Shown here piece by piece: positions 3,734 to 40,273 of a stretch of 43,110 nt of DNA (positions are counted from its first letter, which is position 1; each line of letters opens with the position of its first letter). Below the pieces are notes generated by a model that was given only the letters and a program-made list of their open reading frames with translations, was not told the DNA's origin and did not search any database. The position numbers and the translations under genes were made by a program. Where the stretch lies: positions 1 to 43,110 of IMG/VR virus record IMGVR_UViG_3300038315_001378; one strand, 5' to 3'. This DNA comes from a virus. Its lineage: Duplodnaviria > Caudoviricetes.

Positions 3734-4540
3734 ATGAAAAATGATATTTTCGCGGATATACCAGAAGAGGGAAAGACTGATTTAGATAATGTCTTTTCTT
3801 CTCTGGACAAGGAGAAAGAAACTTCTACTCCTTCGCGAGGAGGAAAAAAACAAAAAGAAACAGAGAAAAAGCCCTCGCGGGCTGATAGTAAAAAAACAGC
3901 GAAAAAAAAATTAGCTCCGTTTCATCAACATCCCCGCTGGATAGAAATGCAGTCAAAGCTCAAAAACAAGGATAGCAGCATAGATAACCTTACTACCCAG
4001 CTAAAGGATTTAAAGTCTCAATTTAGTAAAATTGAGCAGGGTTCCCAGCCAACCTCAATACCTCAATGGTTTAGCGACAGATTTGGTGAAGATGAGTCGG
4101 CTTGGCGTGAATTTAGTTCTTATCGAAACAAGCAAAAACAAGAGATTAAACAAGAAATTTTAAAAGATCAACAGGACAAAAACAAAGAAAACGAAAAAGA
4201 AATTAGTAAGAATGAAGAATTTGTTAATGAACAAATAAGTTTATTAGCAGATCAAGGACACGAATTTTTACTAACTAAAAATGGACGAAATGAATTTCTA
4301 AAATTTGCTACAAAATTTCCAGTAACTAATGCTGATCTAAAATTAGACTTTCCTAAGATTGCCAAGCTTTATCAATCGCAAAAGCAATTAAAGGACAGCA
4401 AGAGCAACAAGGAAAAAGATAAGAAAAAGAAAATTGCCGCCAAAGCTGGTTCTAGCCAAAAAGCTGAATCTAACAAGCCAAAGTCTTTAACTTCGGCTAA
4501 ATTAAGAGGGAAAAGCTGGAGGGATTTTGTTAAAAACTAA
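3734..4540 (+). CDS. Capsid scaffolding protein (putative)
   Basis: Charged coiled-coil protein with PFHQHPRW motif, located between portal and capsid. Confidence 0.7.
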   Translation: MKNDIFADIPEEGKTDLDNVFSSLDKEKETSTPSRGGKKQKETEKKPSRADSKKTAKKKLAPFHQHPRWIEMQSKLKNKDSSIDNLTTQLKDLKSQFSKIEQGSQPTSIPQWFSDRFGEDESAWREFSSYRNKQKQEIKQEILKDQQDKNKENEKEISKNEEFVNEQISLLADQGHEFLLTKNGRNEFLKFATKFPVTNADLKLDFPKIAKLYQSQKQLKDSKSNKEKDKKKKIAAKAGSSQKAESNKPKSLTSAKLRGKSWRDFVKN

Positions 4541-6791: not shown

Positions 6792-7514
6792 ATGGCAACT
6801 CGTTTAACAGGCCCAGTTCTCGTTTCTGCTGCTGAAATTTTTTCTTCTTCTTCTAACCAAGAGCATGATTTAGGCGCGCTGGCAATTTCTGCTGATGGAA
6901 GAAAATATCGCTATCAGCTAGCAGGAGGCACTGCTTTGGTGCCGGGCAAGCTTCAGCAAGCTCCAGCAGAGATAACTAATCACCAAGACTTAACCGCGAC
7001 AGCGGCTTCCGCGATTGGGGACACTACAATCAATGTAACTTTAGGCGCGACAGAAGCAACAGCTAATCAGTACGCGGGAGGATATTTAATGGTTACTACT
7101 ACTCCGGGACAAGGCTATCAGTACAAGATTAAGAGCAATCCAGCAGCAGATGCTTCCGCCGCGATAGTGATTACTCTTGCTGATCCAATTAAAGTAGCTT
7201 TAACCACTTCTTCAGTTGTTGATTTGGTTTTAAGTCCTTATTCTGGAACACTTGTACTGCCAACAACTGCCAGTTCTGCTCCCACAGGGGTTGCTGTTCA
7301 TCCGACAGTAGCTTCTGAATATGGATGGATACAAACAGGCGGGCCAGCTTGTATTCTCGCGAATAACGCGATTACAGTTGGCGTTAATGTTTCAGCTTCC
7401 AATGGAGTAGCAGGATCAGTTGAGGCAGCAGTAACAGCTCAAGCAGCTATTGGTTATGCTATTACAGGAATCGCGGACGCGGAGTATGGCGCGATTTACT
7501 TGACAATAGATTAA
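6792..7514 (+). CDS. Capsid decoration/cement-like structural protein
   Basis: Ala/Thr/Gly-rich; DGRKYRY and YGWIQTGG motifs; near capsid gene. Confidence 0.6.
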   Translation: MATRLTGPVLVSAAEIFSSSSNQEHDLGALAISADGRKYRYQLAGGTALVPGKLQQAPAEITNHQDLTATAASAIGDTTINVTLGATEATANQYAGGYLMVTTTPGQGYQYKIKSNPAADASAAIVITLADPIKVALTTSSVVDLVLSPYSGTLVLPTTASSAPTGVAVHPTVASEYGWIQTGGPACILANNAITVGVNVSASNGVAGSVEAAVTAQAAIGYAITGIADAEYGAIYLTID

Positions 7515-12069: not shown

Positions 12070-13041
12070 ATGGCAATAATAAACCCAAAACAACTTGACC
12101 TCCGAGTGTATATGAACCCGAATGATGATAATAGCGGAAACGATAAATCACCATATGCACAATCAGCGACTCTCGCAGGAACAGCCAGCGTAGCCTCTGG
12201 AGCTTTAGTATTGGACGGAAACAGCGATTACCTTACTTTCCCTGACACCGCTTCCAACTCCTTATTTTCCCGTAATGAATTGACTTTGTTTGCTTGGTTT
12301 AATGTGGATACTTTGGATACGACTGCACAGACAATAATAGCTAAGTATGATGATGGTAATAATAATAGAGCATATATGTTAAGAATTGAAGCGACATCAG
12401 ATACAATTCGTTCTTTTTTGTCTTTTGGCGGGACAGCTAATAATTCAGACATTGAAACTAGCGAAACAATAACACCTGGAACAGATTATTTTGTTGTAAC
12501 CACTTGGGACGGAGCACACCACAAAGCTTTTATAAATGGAGTAGAAAAAACATCAGAGTTTTATAGTGGTGGGATTTTTGACGGCAATGAATTGGTGAGC
12601 ATAGGAGCATCATTTAACACAACTGCTGAAGAATTTTTTGACGGCACAATCTACCAAGCAGGCGTATCAGGGCGCGCTTGGTCTCCGCAACAAATAGCTA
12701 ACCTTTTTCATTTAGGAAAAACATATCGCGTAATTGAGCCTAAAAAAGAATTGCTTTTTAGTGAAAATTTTGGGGGAAGCAATGTTTTGAGCCAATATAT
12801 TAAATCAGGCGGAACATTTGCAATAGAATACCAAAATACGACTGGAAAAAATTACTTAAAATGTTTAACAGGCACATCAGTAACATTAAAAACCCTAACA
12901 AATGATTGGAATGGCGCGAATTTTACAGACAGCCAAACAACAATAGCAGGCAGTCCAACTGTAACTCGCAATACTTCTGATGTAACAATAACAATGTCAG
13001 CCAATGATGCTATTACTGATATTGTTGTGAGAAGAAATTAA
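12070..13041 (+). CDS. LamG/concanavalin A-like domain protein
   Basis: LDGNSDYL, VVTTWDG, FINGVE, FFDGTI motifs. Confidence 0.82.
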   Translation: MAIINPKQLDLRVYMNPNDDNSGNDKSPYAQSATLAGTASVASGALVLDGNSDYLTFPDTASNSLFSRNELTLFAWFNVDTLDTTAQTIIAKYDDGNNNRAYMLRIEATSDTIRSFLSFGGTANNSDIETSETITPGTDYFVVTTWDGAHHKAFINGVEKTSEFYSGGIFDGNELVSIGASFNTTAEEFFDGTIYQAGVSGRAWSPQQIANLFHLGKTYRVIEPKKELLFSENFGGSNVLSQYIKSGGTFAIEYQNTTGKNYLKCLTGTSVTLKTLTNDWNGANFTDSQTTIAGSPTVTRNTSDVTITMSANDAITDIVVRRN

Positions 13042-13230
13042 AAATATAAAAATTAGAAGATTCTAATGCCAACAAACAAGCACAAAAAATCAGCAAGTAA
13101 ACAACGCCGCGGACAAGACAATGTTGATATTATAAACGAAATAAATCTAAATTAAATTAATTTAATTAGCAGCGGGCAGGTATGAGTGCTAGTCGCTTGG
13201 CTTCTTGTACTTTGCCCGCAAGTCAAGCAT

Positions 13231-14379: not shown

Positions 14380-14384
14380 TATGT

Positions 14385-14725
14385 ATGGCATTAAAAACAA
14401 TAACAATCAATTCTATTTGGGGCGGACAGCAACAGACGTATTATGTTTGAGAGCCTATTATTTTAGCGCTTTCAAGATTAGCTTTCAAAACAGCGTCAAT
14501 TATTTTTGGTCCATAAGGATGGAATTTTGAATATGTTTTATAACTTTTTTCTTTATATAAAGAACTTTCTTTATATAAATCGAAAAGCAGCCAAAGAATT
14601 AAAAGTAAAAAAATAAAATTCATAATTATATATTAACATAGAATTTAAAATAATAACAGAAATGAATGGCATTAAAAACAATAACAATCAATTCGATCTG
14701 GGGCGGACAGCAACAGACATATTAT
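14385..14725 (+). repeat. 60-bp direct repeat of a gene 5' end (14385-14444 and 14666-14725) flanking an insert
   Basis: Both copies encode MALKTITINSIWGGQQQTYY; three differences, all synonymous. Confidence 0.92.
14441..14623 (-). CDS. Small membrane protein (moron-like insert)
   Basis: 60 aa, N-terminal hydrophobic helix, very AT-rich, antisense within the tail operon. Confidence 0.55.
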   Translation of the reverse strand: MNFIFLLLILWLLFDLYKESSLYKEKSYKTYSKFHPYGPKIIDAVLKANLESAKIIGSQT

Positions 14726-24790: not shown

Positions 24791-24803
24791 AATAAGTTTG
24801 TTG

Positions 24804-24890
24804 TCAATCAAATATCCCCTCAACTATAGCTACGAGAACAATTAAGGAGATGCCGATTATAATTATATTTGTGAGGATGAGGCTGATCAT
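24804..24890 (-). CDS. 28-aa hydrophobic peptide
   Basis: MISLILTNIIIIGISLIVLVAIVEGIFD*, read by hand; below the ORF-track cutoff. Confidence 0.4.
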   Translation of the reverse strand: MISLILTNIIIIGISLIVLVAIVEGIFD

Positions 24891-25030: not shown

Positions 25031-25073
25031 AATTTGTTCCTTATTATTTGTTCTTTGAAAATTTTCTAATTTG

Positions 25074-25352
25074 TCAATCAAATATCCCCTCAACCTCCTC
25101 CATTTCCAATTCATACCATTTGTCTTTGCCAAAACAAACATCTTCTGCAGCACAGTCTCGCATACGGACATTATAGATTTTAGGCTCTGGTTTTTCTACA
25201 TCTTCTACTTCTTCAACAGCTTTAACGCGAGGCACACGAGGCGCATGAGGTTGAGAAGTCAATAATCCTCCCAGCCATATAGACAGCCACACAACAGTTA
25301 AGCAAATTAAAAATATAAAAATTAGAAGACAGTTTTTGAGTATTTTATTCAT
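25074..25352 (-). CDS. Membrane-anchored small protein
   Basis: N-terminal hydrophobic helix; ATGA overlap with the upstream gene. Confidence 0.65.
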   Translation of the reverse strand: MNKILKNCLLIFIFLICLTVVWLSIWLGGLLTSQPHAPRVPRVKAVEEVEDVEKPEPKIYNVRMRDCAAEDVCFGKDKWYELEMEEVEGIFD

Positions 25353-29452: not shown

Positions 29453-29481
29453 TTGACAAAAAAATTAAACTGTGCTAGCCT
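29453..29481 (+). promoter_or_regulatory. Sigma70-like promoter of the tracrRNA-like RNA
   Basis: TTGACA - 17 bp - TAGCCT with extended TG. Confidence 0.65.
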
Positions 29482-29487
29482 AATAAT

Positions 29488-29662
29488 ATTCACCATTGCT
29501 AAAATGGGGTGGGCTTACCGAGCTGCCTTGCTCTTTCGAGAGCAAATTCCGATCCGTCGGAACTTGTCGTAGAAGTACGCGAGGAGCGTTGAAGTAAGAA
29601 AATTCTCTAACTAATAACATTGTAGATAGCCCCCTAATAGTAATATTAGGGGGTATTATTTT
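29488..29662 (+). ncRNA. Putative tracrRNA / scaffold RNA
   Basis: Several short hairpins, then 29601-29627 complementary to the CRISPR repeat, then a 10-bp GTAA-loop hairpin with T-rich tail. Confidence 0.8.
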
Positions 29663-29663
29663 C

Positions 29664-30791
29664 ATGGCAAAAAAACCAAAAACTGCTTTTATCAGAAAAG
29701 TCTATAAATACCGAATATATCCAAACAGTACTCAAAAAAAGATGATGGCACAGCATTTTGGCTGTGTTCGCTGGGTTTACAACTGGGCTAGGAAAAATAA
29801 AATAAGAGCTTATAAAGCACAAAATAAAGACCCTATAATGCTTAGAGCTAATCCAGAATTAGATCAAAAAGGCAGGGCGCATAAATACGAATTATCACGA
29901 CAACTCACGCAGTTAAAAAAAAGACATGCCTTACAGTGGCTTAACGAAATTAATTCTCAATCACTTGTGGCGGCTATACATCATTTAGACTCTGGAATGC
30001 AACATTTTTTTAGGAGAGTGAAACAAGGCGGTGTCCCGGGCTTTCCAAGAAAGAAATATAAAGATGATAATAAATCAAGTTTTGAGTGTCCCCAACATAC
30101 GACAGTTAATCAAAAAAAAGGTTTTATCAGCATACCAAAAATACCTTTTATTAAAACTAAAATTCATAGAAATTTTGAAGGCAAGACTAAAATGATAACA
30201 ATTAGTAAGACAGCAAGCGGTAAATATTACGCCAGCGTGCTAGTAGAAGAAAAGGGGAGCTTGCCTAAAAAACCTAAACTTGATAAAAAGAAATTAAAAT
30301 TAGTAAAAGTAAATCAAATGTTAAAACAACAATTCTTAGAAAATAAATTAAAGCGTTTAAAAGTTTTGCAAAGAAGATTAAGCCGCAAACAACACGGCGG
30401 GAAAAATTACGAAAAGGCAAGAATTAAATTAGCTAAACTGCATGAGCTAATTTCAAACCAGCGCGGTGATTTTCTGCATAATCAATCTAAAACCTTGATT
30501 AAAAAACACAAACATATTAAGATTAAAGAAGAAAAAATAGCGGAAAAAATTAAAAAAGAAAAACATAAGCAAAACAAAAGAAGGATATTAGACAGAGGAG
30601 CAGGGGAGTTTAAAAGGCAGTTGCAATATAAAGGTGAATGGTACGGGGCTAATGTTATTGTAGAGAAAAAGAAAAAACCAGACTGTCGTTGTGGTGGCTG
30701 TATTGATAACGCTCTTTTAGCGGCGGAAAGATGTATAATAGCAAAATCCGATCAAGGTGTTTTGGATAAAAAACCAAAACCTAAGTCTTAA
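29664..30791 (+). CDS. tnpB: CRISPR-associated TnpB homolog (IS200/IS605 OrfB family), predicted nuclease-dead
   Basis: YKYRIYP, FGCVRWVYN, WLNEINSQSL, GFPR, SGKYYAS, LQRRLSRK, NQRGDFLH, EFKRQLQYKGEWYG present; RuvC motifs GIDLG, IEDL and DRDxNAA absent or degenerate. Confidence 0.88.
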   Translation: MAKKPKTAFIRKVYKYRIYPNSTQKKMMAQHFGCVRWVYNWARKNKIRAYKAQNKDPIMLRANPELDQKGRAHKYELSRQLTQLKKRHALQWLNEINSQSLVAAIHHLDSGMQHFFRRVKQGGVPGFPRKKYKDDNKSSFECPQHTTVNQKKGFISIPKIPFIKTKIHRNFEGKTKMITISKTASGKYYASVLVEEKGSLPKKPKLDKKKLKLVKVNQMLKQQFLENKLKRLKVLQRRLSRKQHGGKNYEKARIKLAKLHELISNQRGDFLHNQSKTLIKKHKHIKIKEEKIAEKIKKEKHKQNKRRILDRGAGEFKRQLQYKGEWYGANVIVEKKKKPDCRCGGCIDNALLAAERCIIAKSDQGVLDKKPKPKS

Positions 30792-30861
30792 TATTTATGA
30801 TTTGGCTTAAACAAGCGGAAAAGGACAATAAACCACTGCGACATGATGTTGTTTTCTGCGC

Positions 30862-30890
30862 TTGCTTTAGCTAAATTAGCTATCTACAAT
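30862..30890 (+). promoter_or_regulatory. Putative array promoter 1
   Basis: TTGCTT - 17 bp - TACAAT, the -10 lying inside repeat 1. Confidence 0.5.
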
Positions 30891-31323
30891 GTTATTGGTT
30901 AAGGGGATTATTAGACGCAGAAGAAACAGGAGATACCTTTAGAAGATCTACAATGTTATTGGTTAAGGGGATTATTAGACCTTTGTATTCTTTTTGATAG
31001 TATTGTTGATCTACAATGTTATTGGTTAAGAGAGTTGTTAGACAGAATTATCAGTAGTGCATTTTAAAACATCTACAATGCCATTGGTTAAGGGAATTGT
31101 TAGACTTCGCCTATCATTGTATCCCAGTAATGATCTACAATGTTATTGGTTGAGGGAGTTGTTAGACAGGGATAGGCTTATTTAAGCCAAAAAACTAACT
31201 TTGCTTAAAATAAGGCAATCGATACTTTTTCTATATTATTGGTTAGGAGGGTTGTTAGACAAAAAAGAAATGGCAAAAATTTATTAAGATCTACAATGTT
31301 ATTGGTTGAGGGAGTTGTTAGAC
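30882..31323 (+). CRISPR. CRISPR array, 7 repeats of 35 bp (consensus ATCTACAATGTTATTGGTTRAGGGRRTTRTTAGAC)
   Basis: Repeats start at 30882, 30946, 31009, 31071, 31133, 31226 (5'-degenerate), 31289; spacers 29, 28, 27, 27, 58, 28 nt, all unique. Confidence 0.95.
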
Positions 31324-31471
31324 TTACGCATATTAATGACGGGGTAATATCATGACATAATATGTATGCTGTCATGACATGCATGTCATGTATATTCTTT
31401 CAACTTCTTTTTAGTGGTCTAATGCGAAGTTGAGTATTTGGCTTAAATTAAACAAATAATGCTCCCCTATT

Positions 31472-31651
31472 ATGTCTTCTTACTTTTGCTTAAAATGCGG
31501 CACAGAAAATATCGATACGCCATATGGCGTGCCGCAAGGTTGTAATTGTCGTGAGTCTGCGATAAGAAAAAATCCAAAACCAGAAGATAAAACAAAAAAA
31601 ACTCAAGACATAAAAAATTTATTTGATTTTTTAAATCTAAATAACAAATAA
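31472..31651 (+). CDS. Small Zn-finger-like protein (59 aa)
   Basis: MSSYFCLKCGTENIDTPYGVPQGCNCRES..., read by hand. Confidence 0.5.
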   Translation: MSSYFCLKCGTENIDTPYGVPQGCNCRESAIRKNPKPEDKTKKTQDIKNLFDFLNLNNK

Positions 31652-31707: not shown

Positions 31708-31850
31708 AAAAGGTGTGGTAACCTCTTTAAGAAGAAAAGTCTAAATCCTAATTGTAATTTGGGCAAAGAGGTAAATTACCACTATGCCCACTTAGGGCGA
31801 ATAGCTTTCTCGCCTTTTTTGCCCAAATTACAGTTTAGGATTTTTTTGTT
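31708..31850 (+). ncRNA. Structured leader or small RNA
   Basis: ~30-bp arms (31743-31771 / 31813-31843) enclosing an inner hairpin, followed by a T run. Confidence 0.5.
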
Positions 31851-36656: not shown

Positions 36657-36878
36657 AAAGCCAAAAATTAAAAACTAAATATTCCAAAACTCCGCGATCC
36701 GACAAAGAGAGAAAAGAGAGAGAAGAATTTTTTATGCGGAAGGTTGAAAAATTTAGAATAGGTAATTTAAAAAAATAAACTCTCTCTTGTTCGCTGTGAG
36801 CATGCGCAAGCTAGATGCCAACGGCTCTAGTGTAATATATTGGAGGGGCGCGCAGGTGAATGGCGACAAGAGGGATTT

Positions 36879-38069
36879 ATGAGATATATGTTTATTTATA
36901 AAAAAGAAAACCAATTACCAATTAAAAGCTGGATATTAGAGGAAGATTATAATGCTGATGAGAAAATGGTTGAACAAGTAGAGAATTTAGCTAAATTACC
37001 ATTTGCTTTTCAGCACGTTGCTTTACTTCCAGATGGACACGTCGGCTACGGCATGCCTATTGGCGGAATTATGGCAACTAAAAATGTAATTGTTCCGAAT
37101 GCGGTTGGTGTAGATATTGGATGTGGAGTTTGTGCTGTCAAAACTTCTTTAACAGAAATTGATACAGAAATACTTAAAAAAATAATGGGAGAGATTAGGA
37201 AATTGATACCGCTTGGGTTTAAGAGGCATAAAGAAGGACAGGACATGGACTGGGAATTTGCAGGAGAGGGTGAAATACCTAAAATCTGCTTGCAAGAGTG
37301 GAGTAATGCAAGCAAATCTTTAGGCACTCTCGGCGGAGGCAATCATTTTATAGAAATTCAAAAAGGCGACGACGGACATATTTGGATTATGCTACATAGC
37401 GGAAGCAGGAATTTAGGATTTACTGTTGCCAATTTCTATAACAGATTAGCGGTAAAATTAAACCAAAAATGGCATAGTCAAGTGCCTAAAGAATGGGAAT
37501 TAGCCTTTTTGCTAGTTGATAGTGAAGAAGGACAAAAATATATCGAAGAAATGCGATATTGTGTTGAATATGCTTTGGCTAATAGGGAGTTAATGATGGA
37601 TAGAATTTTAGATATAATACGGGAAAAGATAGGTGGATTTGGTTATACTTGGGACAACATGATAAATATAGCCCATAACTACGCGGCTTTAGAAAACCAT
37701 TTTGGTCAAAATGTCTGGGTGCATAGAAAAGGAGCAACACGAGCCAGAGAAGGGCAGTTGGGAATAATCCCAGGAAGTCAAGGAACAAATAGCTACATTG
37801 TAAGAGGCAAGGGCAACCCAGATAGTTTTGAGTCTTGCTCACATGGAGCAGGCAGAAAAATGGGACGAAAAGAAGCAAAATGTAATTTGAATTTAGAAGA
37901 AGAAATTAAAAAGTTAAAGGATAAAAATGTGATACACGGAATTAGAGGAATTAGAGACTTAGACGAGGCCCCTGGAGCGTATAAGGATATTAACACTGTA
38001 ATCCAAAACCAAAAAGATTTAATTGATGTAGCGGTTATATTATATCCTTTAGCGGTAATTAAAGGATAA
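36879..38069 (+). CDS. rtcB: RtcB-family RNA ligase
   Basis: PDGHVGYG, AVGVDIGCG, GTLGGGNHF, HSGSR, HN, HRKGAT, SCSHGAGR, DEAPGAYK motifs intact. Confidence 0.96.
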   Translation: MRYMFIYKKENQLPIKSWILEEDYNADEKMVEQVENLAKLPFAFQHVALLPDGHVGYGMPIGGIMATKNVIVPNAVGVDIGCGVCAVKTSLTEIDTEILKKIMGEIRKLIPLGFKRHKEGQDMDWEFAGEGEIPKICLQEWSNASKSLGTLGGGNHFIEIQKGDDGHIWIMLHSGSRNLGFTVANFYNRLAVKLNQKWHSQVPKEWELAFLLVDSEEGQKYIEEMRYCVEYALANRELMMDRILDIIREKIGGFGYTWDNMINIAHNYAALENHFGQNVWVHRKGATRAREGQLGIIPGSQGTNSYIVRGKGNPDSFESCSHGAGRKMGRKEAKCNLNLEEEIKKLKDKNVIHGIRGIRDLDEAPGAYKDINTVIQNQKDLIDVAVILYPLAVIKG

Positions 38070-38341: not shown

Positions 38342-38662
38342 TTAATTAGGTATTGTATCGATAATTATTTTGTTTTGATTGTGGGTGTCAATAATTAAGT
38401 ATTCTTTAATATCGCTAAAAGTTTTTTTCATTTCTTCTTTTATTTTTTTAAGCGTGTTTTTGCTGTAAACACATATACCAGAAGAGGGAAAGATTGATTT
38501 AGATAATGTCTTTTCTTCGGAAGCAAAAATACTGTACTCCAGGTAGCCGACCATGCCGAAACAATTTTCAAATTCAAGCATTAGGACAAATCGTTTATAT
38601 TTATAATGTTCTTTTTTTGCTCTTTCTATTTCGCTGTTTATTAGTTTTTGTTTTTTTGTCAT
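38342..38662 (-). CDS. Hypothetical protein
   Basis: 106-aa ORF in the leftward operon. Confidence 0.6.
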   Translation of the reverse strand: MTKKQKLINSEIERAKKEHYKYKRFVLMLEFENCFGMVGYLEYSIFASEEKTLSKSIFPSSGICVYSKNTLKKIKEEMKKTFSDIKEYLIIDTHNQNKIIIDTIPN

Positions 38663-38747: not shown

Positions 38748-39533
38748 TTAAAAGCCTATTCTTCTAATCGATCCCATGCGGTCATAATGTGTATCATTTC
38801 GTAGCTGGCTGCGATCATCAAAACCATAATACTGATCATAATACCGATAACCGTAATAAGGATTGGCAGTAAAGCTTTTTTTGAGTTGCTTAATTGTCTG
38901 TGTTGGGCTCATAAGTAAATTAACGCCGTTAATATCATAATCGATTGATCCATAGTCGTCATCAAGGCTATGGGAAGACGCGATTAACGCGTTGTTCATT
39001 GCGTACATTTCAAAATCGCCCATTAAGTATATTTGTTTTTTGTCTGGATTGACATGTAGAGTTTTGCCGATCAGGTTATAGTTTTTAGCTTTTTGAACAA
39101 TTTTAAGGTGGTTGAGTTTATTAGGAAACAGATATTTTTTATGATTATTGAAAAAGTCTAAACTATCACTCTCGGAAAGGTCATTGCTTTTTTTGGCGCA
39201 AAAGCCATTGTGTCCAAAAAACCAGCCATTATGTTGCCAGAGATGAATATTTTTAGCGGTTGTTGCGCCAGCAGTATTAGCTCGTAAATGAATAATTATA
39301 TTATCTTTAGTTTTGATTATTTTATCTAATTTTTTTCTAATTTTTTTGTTCTTGATTTTTAGGAATTTCAACAAAACGCGGTCTTGGTCTTTGCTGTCAT
39401 TGTTGTAGGCTAGTAACGCCAAGCCGTCATTGTTGTAATGTTTCCAGTGAATAATTTGGTTGATTATTTTATTTCTTGGTTTTTGTTTTAATTTTTGATT
39501 TGTTTTTTGGTTGATTGATATTATTCTACACAT
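38748..39533 (-). CDS. Class II (Ntn) glutamine amidotransferase-like protein
   Basis: N-terminal Met-Cys, NNDG, IHLRANT.G, NIH, GHNG, SDS motifs. Confidence 0.82.
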   Translation of the reverse strand: MCRIISINQKTNQKLKQKPRNKIINQIIHWKHYNNDGLALLAYNNDSKDQDRVLLKFLKIKNKKIRKKLDKIIKTKDNIIIHLRANTAGATTAKNIHLWQHNGWFFGHNGFCAKKSNDLSESDSLDFFNNHKKYLFPNKLNHLKIVQKAKNYNLIGKTLHVNPDKKQIYLMGDFEMYAMNNALIASSHSLDDDYGSIDYDINGVNLLMSPTQTIKQLKKSFTANPYYGYRYYDQYYGFDDRSQLRNDTHYDRMGSIRRIGF

Positions 39534-39559
39534 AGTTGTAATATTAATTAAAGGGTTTA

Positions 39560-40273
39560 TTAATTTAAGTTTTGTCCTAATTCTTGTGCGATTGGTTCAA
39601 CAGTTAGTTCATAATCGTATGTATTATCTGCATAAAAATATGGCTCGGATATATAGTCATAATGATCAGCGTTATTTAATGTAGTTGTTTTCTTCTTACA
39701 GAACATCTGCTTGGCATTATCGTTGTATGCTTTGACTAAGAACCCCAGAAACTTATTGACATTATCGATTTTATGCGAACAAGCAGAAAAAAACCTAAAC
39801 TCTAGTGTTTCTATGGGATGATTGCGGAAAAACCTGTACTTTTCATATCTTTTAATTTCTTTGTGGGTGTTAATAATGTCTTGATATTTTCTGCAATAGG
39901 TGTTGTTTTGCAGTCTGTCTTGGACGCATAGACACAATTCACTTTCAGCATATTTTTGTAATTTCTGGATCAGCGTAAAATCAAGAATAAAGTTAGTGAG
40001 TTTATGTTTTTTTGGCTTGATGTGTACATGTAAGCCGCAAGTCTGATTAGACCGATAGACGTCTGAAGTGAACATTTTAAGTTTTTCCATCATGGCATTG
40101 AAAGTTTGAAAAATACCAAGATCGATTTCTTCGCCTCGCCAGTCATAGTTATGATCGATATTAACGCTACCATCCTCTTTTGGGTTTTCAATCCCTAGAC
40201 GATCTAGGATGTTTTCATGAAACGAGCCCTCTAGCTCGAAGCCATAAGTGAATGAATTTTTGTTAATTAGCAT
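39560..40273 (-). CDS. Putative amidoligase (COOH-NH2 ligase family)
   Basis: YGFELEG, EDGSV, NQTCGLHVHI, TLEFRFF motifs. Confidence 0.82.
   Translation of the reverse strand: MLINKNSFTYGFELEGSFHENILDRLGIENPKEDGSVNIDHNYDWRGEEIDLGIFQTFNAMMEKLKMFTSDVYRSNQTCGLHVHIKPKKHKLTNFILDFTLIQKLQKYAESELCLCVQDRLQNNTYCRKYQDIINTHKEIKRYEKYRFFRNHPIETLEFRFFSACSHKIDNVNKFLGFLVKAYNDNAKQMFCKKKTTTLNNADHYDYISEPYFYADNTYDYELTVEPIAQELGQNLN

Follow-up and report, generated by a model that had tools for sequence, protein, structure and literature searches.

A phage-encoded TnpB derivative predicted to be nuclease-dead, with a tracrRNA-like RNA and a CRISPR array whose repeat resembles an inverted type V-A repeat

Dead TnpBs, TnpB-sized effectors that use a tracrRNA and the repeated inactivation of Cas12 proteins are already described, and the phage locus reported here resembles several of these systems in part. 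With TldR proteins, as portrayed in the available portions of two reports (bioRxiv 2023.11.30.569447; PMC13622181), it shares an IS605-type TnpB scaffold, RuvC decay, the loss of the zinc finger and of RuvC-III, a non-mobile state and possible carriage by phages; the loss of at least two RuvC acids with retention of the binding lobes likewise applies to both. TranC systems, especially the phage-borne CauTranC9, have in common with it a TnpB-sized effector, a split omega-RNA, a short array and no adaptation genes, according to the accessible text of the preprint (bioRxiv 2026.03.27.714800). Cas12m (type V-M) is similar in that CRISPR-guided binding without cleavage is encoded on mobile elements without cas1 or cas2 (available excerpts of PMC11013384 and PMC11656645), and Cas12r of Thermus phage Lalka in being a phage TnpB-like effector with host-like degenerate repeats and new spacers by the gene, for which the excerpted preprint proposes adaptation in trans (bioRxiv 2026.04.20.719267). 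Finally, type V-A arrays of Patescibacteria (L300, L296 and L358-L369) match the phage array in repeat ends, a repeat length of 35-36 nt, a period of 61-67 nt and the leader pattern.

The stretch of DNA that we analysed (hereafter the window; 43,110 nucleotides) is a complete contig with a 343-bp overlap of its ends. It derives from a tailed phage whose genome measures about 42.8 kb, has an estimated completeness of 100 and carries genes for terminase, major capsid, tail and DnaB. The phage sequence occurs in marine metagenome runs, and the locus is flanked by a predicted peptidase gene and by replication genes. The lack of tnpA, cas1, cas2 and cas4 reported in the initial annotation was borne out, as searches of all six frames of the phage genome found no Y1 TnpA, Cas1, Cas4 or Cas2, while the same searches were positive in 6-8 of 14 control genomes. 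A Pfam scan of 42 ORFs likewise gave no Tn7-like transposase, no other transposase family and no sigma factor. Elsewhere in the genome, long near-exact repeats connect distant parts (3756-3801 with 38473-38518, 13035-13060 with 25304-25329, 24801-24824 with 25071-25094 and 14381-14444 with 14662-14725), and some of these long repeats match a gene to non-coding or opposite-strand regions. An RtcB RNA ligase and an amidoligase-like/glutamine-amidotransferase-like pair are suggested by weak Pfam hits at 36840-38069 and 38748-40273, and a long intergenic hairpin is found downstream of the locus (31743-31843).

The gene of the locus (29664..30791, plus strand) is an intact reading frame for a 375-aa protein, which Pfam, NCBIfam and Foldseek agree in assigning to IS605-type TnpB. 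Pfam matched HTH_OrfB_IS605 and OrfB_IS605 and left the zinc-finger family unmatched; the IS200_TnpB model scored 221 bits and the C2c8 model 28.8 bits against a cut-off of 350. In a Foldseek comparison, the structure closest to the predicted model (mean pLDDT 79.9) was that of ISDra2 TnpB (TM 0.72). Both the D-E-D triad and the C4 zinc finger of active TnpBs are missing from the phage protein: RuvC-I has lost its GxDxG to a deletion, RuvC-II has no Glu, and the catalytic column of the RuvC-III block, aligned at residues 341-356, is occupied by Ala350. Among columns conserved to at least 80% in 221 homologues with an intact DED, the catalytic side keeps 0/8 (RuvC-I), 0/3 (RuvC-II) and 5/21 (zinc finger plus RuvC-III), and the binding regions keep 34/37 (WED/REC), 12/15 (bridge helix) and 9/11 (residues 301-333). 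As judged from these columns, the loss is selective, with catalytic and zinc-finger regions gone and RNA- and DNA-binding regions retained. Family models and motif alignment hence agree with the earlier description of a very TnpB-like protein, nuclease-dead by sequence, with all three RuvC motifs lost from an intact frame, a degenerate zinc finger and conserved N-terminal and bridge-helix regions. The equivalent of the TAM-reading Gln80 of ISDra2, a Gln in 164 of the 221 active homologues, is Val in the phage protein, and DNA binding could therefore be weakened; Tyr75 is retained. Lys and Arg make up 25.6% of the protein (homologues 19.0, sd 1.8), an excess that AT-rich coding may explain in part, and identity to any relative is at most 48%.

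At most one triad residue is kept in 23 of 256 aligned proteins, the query counted. Three dead lineages share derived features with the query (P0392/P0005, P0154/P0393 and the partial P0008), and in a quick tree P0392, P0154, P0008 and the query fall on one side of a branch with an SH-aLRT of 93; the dead-protein clade carries no star in this tree and was not recovered in trees from the N-terminal part alone. Other RuvC-degenerate TnpB lineages are also present among the matches (P0017, P0018, P0024, P0028, P0033 and P0080). Could the protein simply be the relic of a decaying TranC-like system, formerly an active nuclease? A disordered C-terminus (pLDDT below 50 at residues 337-375), the degenerate repeat 6 of the array and the small number of members found would suit such a history; however, the frames are intact in four divergent dead proteins, three of which have a C-terminal ending in common, and both the region-specific conservation and the compensatory RNA changes described below speak against decay, so that we regard a relic as very unlikely.

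A profile search of metagenome contigs yielded 77 loci. One of them (L207) is the same phage in a second assembly, identical (100%) over 5,655 nt and free of array variants relative to the window. Another, L212 on a metagenomic contig, encodes P0392, which is 45% identical to the window protein, and runs from a structured upstream RNA through the dead gene and a conserved leader into an array in which a 26-nt spacer separates a 35-nt repeat from a second one that is broken off at the contig end. An effector of TnpB size thus adjoins a CRISPR array in both the window and L212, which are two loci only, and the linkage of a homologue to such an array, on which the initial annotation had laid weight, is found in L212. 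The two proteins share the encoded residue at 140 of 316 aligned codons, a divergence too high for dN/dS; retention by selection is supported by the L212 layout, the region-specific conservation, the RNA covariation and the pseudoknot. In viral contigs, neither the protein by itself nor the adjacent peptidase, an 18-nt piece of the repeat or patterns of the repeat ends retrieved a close relative, such matches as there were being due to chance. A profile search of 401 Patescibacteria genomes gave four matches in three genomes (open frames of 374-451 aa), in whose loci the tracr model found nothing; an RNA model search of 150 Patescibacteria genomes had 0 matches, and direct pairwise comparison with 65 viral loci produced nothing above shuffles. 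A crude array scan flagged 2 of 65 distinct viral loci and 1 of 76 metagenome loci, the latter being the phage itself, and missed L212 because its rule demanded three repeat copies.

Upstream of the gene, and thus unlike the 3'-end omega-RNA of active IS200/IS605 TnpBs, lies a tracrRNA-like RNA (29488..29627, plus strand) with a stem 1 carrying a pseudoknot loop (29498-29502), three internal hairpins, an anti-repeat and a core stem formed by 29514-29518 and 29594-29598. Comparison with the upstream RNA of L212 gave 37 predicted pairs, 11 of them compensatory and 0 broken, in what are two sequences only; Rfam gave no match at family threshold. The L212 homology begins 7 nt downstream of a predicted sigma-70 promoter (29453..29481, plus strand; TTGACA-17 nt-TGc-TAGCCT). 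Of the promoter claimed earlier, the perfect -35 element stands, but the extended -10 is weak, and since the sequence went unlisted in a consensus scan we count it as a prediction only. On the other side, a hairpin with a T-rich tail (29629..29654, plus strand) is the predicted tracrRNA terminator. It resembles the right-end hairpins of the active relatives L276 and L282, and a relic of an IS right end may therefore be present; the claim that recognisable IS ends are lacking is accordingly less secure as regards this hairpin. An apparent relic of an IS right end is also seen behind the anti-repeat in L212 (1046-1083; model match E 1.4), and it suggests that the anti-repeat may have been inserted into an intact omega-RNA.

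The anti-repeat (29601..29627, plus strand) forms a duplex with repeat bases 1-28, interrupted by one bulge, in which 27 of these 28 bases are paired. Against the six non-degenerate repeats read on the plus strand it makes 142 Watson-Crick pairs, 18 G-U pairs and 2 mismatches, as opposed to 18 mismatches and 2 G-U pairs on the minus strand, a signal made up of five columns for and two against; repeat 4 has two mismatches to the anti-repeat, and repeat 6 is decayed. Each anti-repeat suits its own repeat better than that of the other locus, with cognate duplexes of -33.1 and -23.2 kcal/mol and crossed ones of -12.2 and -16.5 kcal/mol, although in L212 duplex energy by itself does not discriminate the strand. 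In ISDra2, bases -6 to -2 join a loop about 100 nt upstream to form a pseudoknot, as given in the available part of PMC10097598. The corresponding pattern of four pairs plus an A-G was present in 10 of 13 active relatives, the other three having no detectable pseudoknot loop or tail, and it holds for 7/7 window repeats with loop 29498-29502 as well as for L212. Ancestral loops are unable to pair with the 3' end of the window repeat, from which it follows that the scaffold has adapted to this repeat; the same geometry on the plus-strand repeat points to the spacer 3' of it as the guide. Use of the array from the minus strand, that is in the Cas12a sense, was rejected on the G-U and mismatch counts, the pseudoknot and the lost Cas12a stem.

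A motif from the upstream RNA occurs at 17 distinct places in related loci, 13 of which are at the 3' end of other tnpB genes. An omega-RNA model built from 12 of these tnpB 3'-end places matched the L212 RNA at E 2.9e-5 and the window RNA at E 1.5 only, and the omega-RNA link therefore relies on L212 and on the reverse search, in which a model of the two tracrRNAs, run over 48 other loci, matched the tnpB 3' end in L271 (E 1.3e-6; outside the first set) and also in L199 and L194. By these matches the tracrRNA-like RNA descends from a TnpB omega-RNA. Hence the dual-RNA arrangement suspected in the initial annotation is supported by anti-repeat pairing, covariation and the pseudoknot, and the present analysis adds what had been missed, namely the omega-RNA ancestry and a pseudoknot re-tuned to the repeat.

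The array itself comprises seven 35-nt repeats at 30882-31323, spaced by 29, 28, 27, 27, 58 and 28 nt: repeats 1-5 with spacers 1-4 of 29, 28, 27 and 27 nt (30882..31167), a 58-nt unit (31168..31225), and repeat 6, a 28-nt spacer and repeat 7 (31226..31323), all on the plus strand and followed by the predicted terminator of the array transcript (31373..31390, plus strand). The seven repeats claimed earlier are thus present, but because the 5' end of repeat 6 is degenerate and the 58-nt unit is atypical rather than an ordinary spacer, we count five ordinary spacers. Repeats 1 and 2 are identical, in agreement with array growth at the left end.

In reverse orientation, the window repeat matches type V-A (Cas12a) repeats; the initial annotation had overlooked this feature and also the leader at the flipped end, which is V-A-like. 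A scan of 185,579 genomes for the two-repeat end pattern found six loci, four with Cas12a above the curated cut-off, one with diverged V-A-like arrays and one unrelated; identity of the repeat ends arises here by construction, whereas the Cas12a link and the 61-64-nt period of two Patescibacteria arrays do not. The locus with diverged arrays belongs to a Parabacteroides genome (L298, two short arrays at 993-1092 and 7001-7226), and the two ORFs scanned there gave no Cas12a match. Over its full length the window repeat is identical to inverted V-A repeats at 19-23 of 35 positions. The Cas12a stem was found in 4/4 V-A repeats and in 0/4 tested repeats of the window's family, and a phage mini-array serving the host Cas12a was rejected on account of this missing stem.

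Cas12a was found in 15 of 401 Patescibacteria genomes; 13 such regions were examined and 8 contained arrays, whose leaders, together with that of L300, made up a post hoc leader matrix (n=9, of which 2 are uncertain). On this scale the gene-proximal end of the window array scores 4.7, a value reached by 0.16% of 28,482 background windows, and that of L212 scores 15.1, reached by 0; the right end of the window array scores -10.8, reached by 18%. Both gene-proximal leaders thus look like Patescibacteria V-A leaders. The leader of the phage array (30792..30881, plus strand) is conserved in L212 and contains two copies of a Patescibacteria palindrome, the second lying 6 nt before repeat 1. [quoted passage not shown] These substrate features recur in the phage array, whose repeat has TCTA at both ends, also when inverted, whose spacers are 27-29 nt long (26 nt in L212) and whose integration end carries the V-A-like leader. 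Given the V-A-like inverted repeat and the V-A-like gene-proximal leaders, spacers are probably added in trans, at the flipped end, by the type V-A Cas4-Cas1-Cas2 of the host. Acquisition in trans has, according to the respective excerpts, been proposed for Cas12r (bioRxiv 2026.04.20.719267) and demonstrated for type IV-A (PMC11656645).

The shared repeat ends would also suit a counter-defence decoy, in which V-A components of the host are titrated away by the array or complex, either as a spacer sink for Cas1-Cas2 or as an antisense or mimic RNA against Cas12a, with guided DNA binding being incidental. The accessible part of PMC11656645 describes repeat mimics in phages as well as a dead Cas9 for which sequestration of crRNA has been proposed. 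However, the repeats have lost the Cas12a stem, the DNA-binding lobe is conserved, and anti-repeat and pseudoknot co-vary with the plus-strand repeat, a match for which a decoy has no need. We consider a decoy very unlikely.

The 58-nt unit contains at 31176-31191 a palindrome of which exact copies exist at 40 sites in 23 of 151 Patescibacteria genomes, compared with 1 for the reversed control, and in 0/61 and 0/61 genomes of two other phyla. The Patescibacteria sites are intergenic, some of them immediately upstream of TTGACA (-35). Besides 31176-31191, sites of the motif are located at 30805-30816, 30860-30875 and 31441-31452 of the window and in L310, L316, L321 and L363; in some V-A leaders the motif lies about 6 nt before the first repeat, and we found no name in the literature for a protein that binds it. 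A Patescibacteria host is likely for the phage, judging from this enrichment and the V-A-like leader. The earlier guess of a CPR host thus gains indirect support. One named homologue of the capsid protein among the 120 listed is from a Berkelbacteria bin, but a search of 301 Patescibacteria genomes with the capsid protein gave nothing.

In several Patescibacteria genomes, 20-21 nt of the 58-nt unit match intergenic DNA exactly, which brings up the possibility that the same RNA-guided binder regulates host genes as a TldR does, with a set of guides that is frozen; the unit would then begin with a 28-nt spacer taken from a host promoter region, which it would silence. Indeed, the first 28 nt of the unit have spacer length, drift among the repeats is what an old array would show, and TldRs are reported to repress host promoters (bioRxiv 2023.11.30.569447, available portion). 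However, the seven seed-side bases of the unit are unmatched in all of these hits, and a V-A-like leader is retained in both loci. Moreover, the palindrome recurs both in the leader and downstream of the array, and inversion of the unit gives a sequence similar to 31424-31448, so that a promoter copy fits it. The unit is therefore probably an internal promoter or a leader relic, its leader score being unremarkable, and we infer that the -10 region of this promoter overlaps repeat 6 at its decayed 5' end; a role of the unit as a guide to a host promoter is less likely, and a frozen regulator of host genes seems an unlikely explanation of the locus as a whole.

The spacer search against CPR genomes and viromes that the initial annotation had suggested turned up no protospacer. 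None that was convincing came from the phage's own genome (longest seed match 11 nt, low-complexity), 50,697 phages, 72,556 plasmids or 401 Patescibacteria genomes; in viral contigs, where two of the five spacers were searched, one search gave 0 hits and the other 4 hits reaching only 20-21/29. V-A acquisition prefers mobile DNA, according to the available text of PMC13034035, which makes rival elements the likeliest targets. Rival elements would accordingly be the leading target class, at somewhat short of an even chance, with host genes behind them as a distinctly less probable class and mixed or other targets making up the remainder.

Taken together, the reading that we favour, and hold to be rather probable, is that the dead TnpB with its tracrRNA:crRNA binds matching DNA without cutting it and probably keeps competing phages or mobile elements from being transcribed or replicated, while the host V-A machinery probably supplies the spacers in trans. 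In this scheme, tracrRNA and array would be transcribed from the plus strand, and host RNases, probably RNase III, would trim the 27-bp tracrRNA:repeat duplex to give mature crRNA. The RNP would then read a T-rich 5' motif and form an R-loop on target DNA; with no RuvC to cut this DNA, the RNP would act like TldR and Cas12m and stop RNA polymerase or replication, while host V-A Cas4-Cas1-Cas2 would insert new spacers at the gene-proximal repeat. Small Cys-rich ORFs adjoin both loci (31472-31651 of the window, 59 aa; 722-856 of L212, 44 aa) and could hint that the dead RNP recruits a partner, be it an activator, an integrase or a nuclease, as dCas12f-sigmaE or Cas12k do. Yet the two ORFs have no detectable homology (E 0.38), and the absence of a sigma factor or transposase family among the 42 scanned ORFs likewise tells against recruitment, which is the least probable of the explanations that we considered.

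As to the origin of the favoured arrangement, we tentatively suggest that the phage might have built a programmable CRISPRi by joining a Cas12a repeat of its host, in reversed orientation, to a TnpB omega-RNA. So placed, the array would be hidden from Cas12a, the leader would have moved to the flipped end so that the host integrase writes correctly oriented spacers, and the scaffold pseudoknot would have been re-tuned to the borrowed repeat; we put this forward as a possible scenario, less probable than the binding mechanism itself. If true, few non-cutting effectors programmed by an array would be as small as these proteins of 330-375 aa, and there would be a second route to a tracrRNA, in which a foreign repeat is captured instead of the omega-RNA end being duplicated, the locus illustrating how an omega-RNA can split by adopting such a repeat. 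The scenario predicts that the V-A integrase accepts an inverted repeat once the leader has moved. It also points to RNA-guided conflict among Patescibacteria phages, which are poorly known, and would offer a compact, multiplexable CRISPRi scaffold.

How, then, does the locus differ from the systems that it resembles? In the literature we found no effector of TnpB size that is dead, depends on a tracrRNA and goes with a V-A repeat in inverted orientation, although the TranC literature and the PMC10691335 tables could list one. Cas12k (V-K CAST) is set apart by its Tn7-like transposase genes, absent from the 42 phage ORFs in the Pfam scan. Patescibacteria V-A arrays have the opposite orientation and a Cas12a stem, and the phage encodes no cas12a. 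Cas12r, as far as its preprint's available text goes, is an active nuclease with no tracrRNA and a host type I-E repeat. Cas12m uses a crRNA alone, which it processes itself (excerpts of PMC11013384 and PMC11656645), whereas the phage system would use a tracrRNA; moreover, the solved Cas12m chains are about 520-600 residues long, 8-9% identical and at TM 0.48-0.54 to the 375-aa phage protein. Like TranC and other TnpB-like type V-U systems, the locus has a tracrRNA derived from a right-end RNA that pairs with the repeat, but the TranCs characterized in the available portion of bioRxiv 2026.03.27.714800 are active nucleases, whereas here the RuvC is dead, the tracrRNA is upstream and the repeat looks borrowed from V-A in reverse. 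TldRs, in turn, are described in the accessible text as using a single continuous scaffold-guide RNA, whereas the phage RNA is split and fed by an array; in the available text of the 2026 TldR preprint (PMC13622181), the words 'array' and 'tracr' appear 0 times. In the window and in L212, the only two such loci found, TldR-like inactivation is combined with a TranC-like split RNA, so that a single, very small protein would unite two trajectories of TnpB, one towards a dead repressor and the other towards a CRISPR effector.
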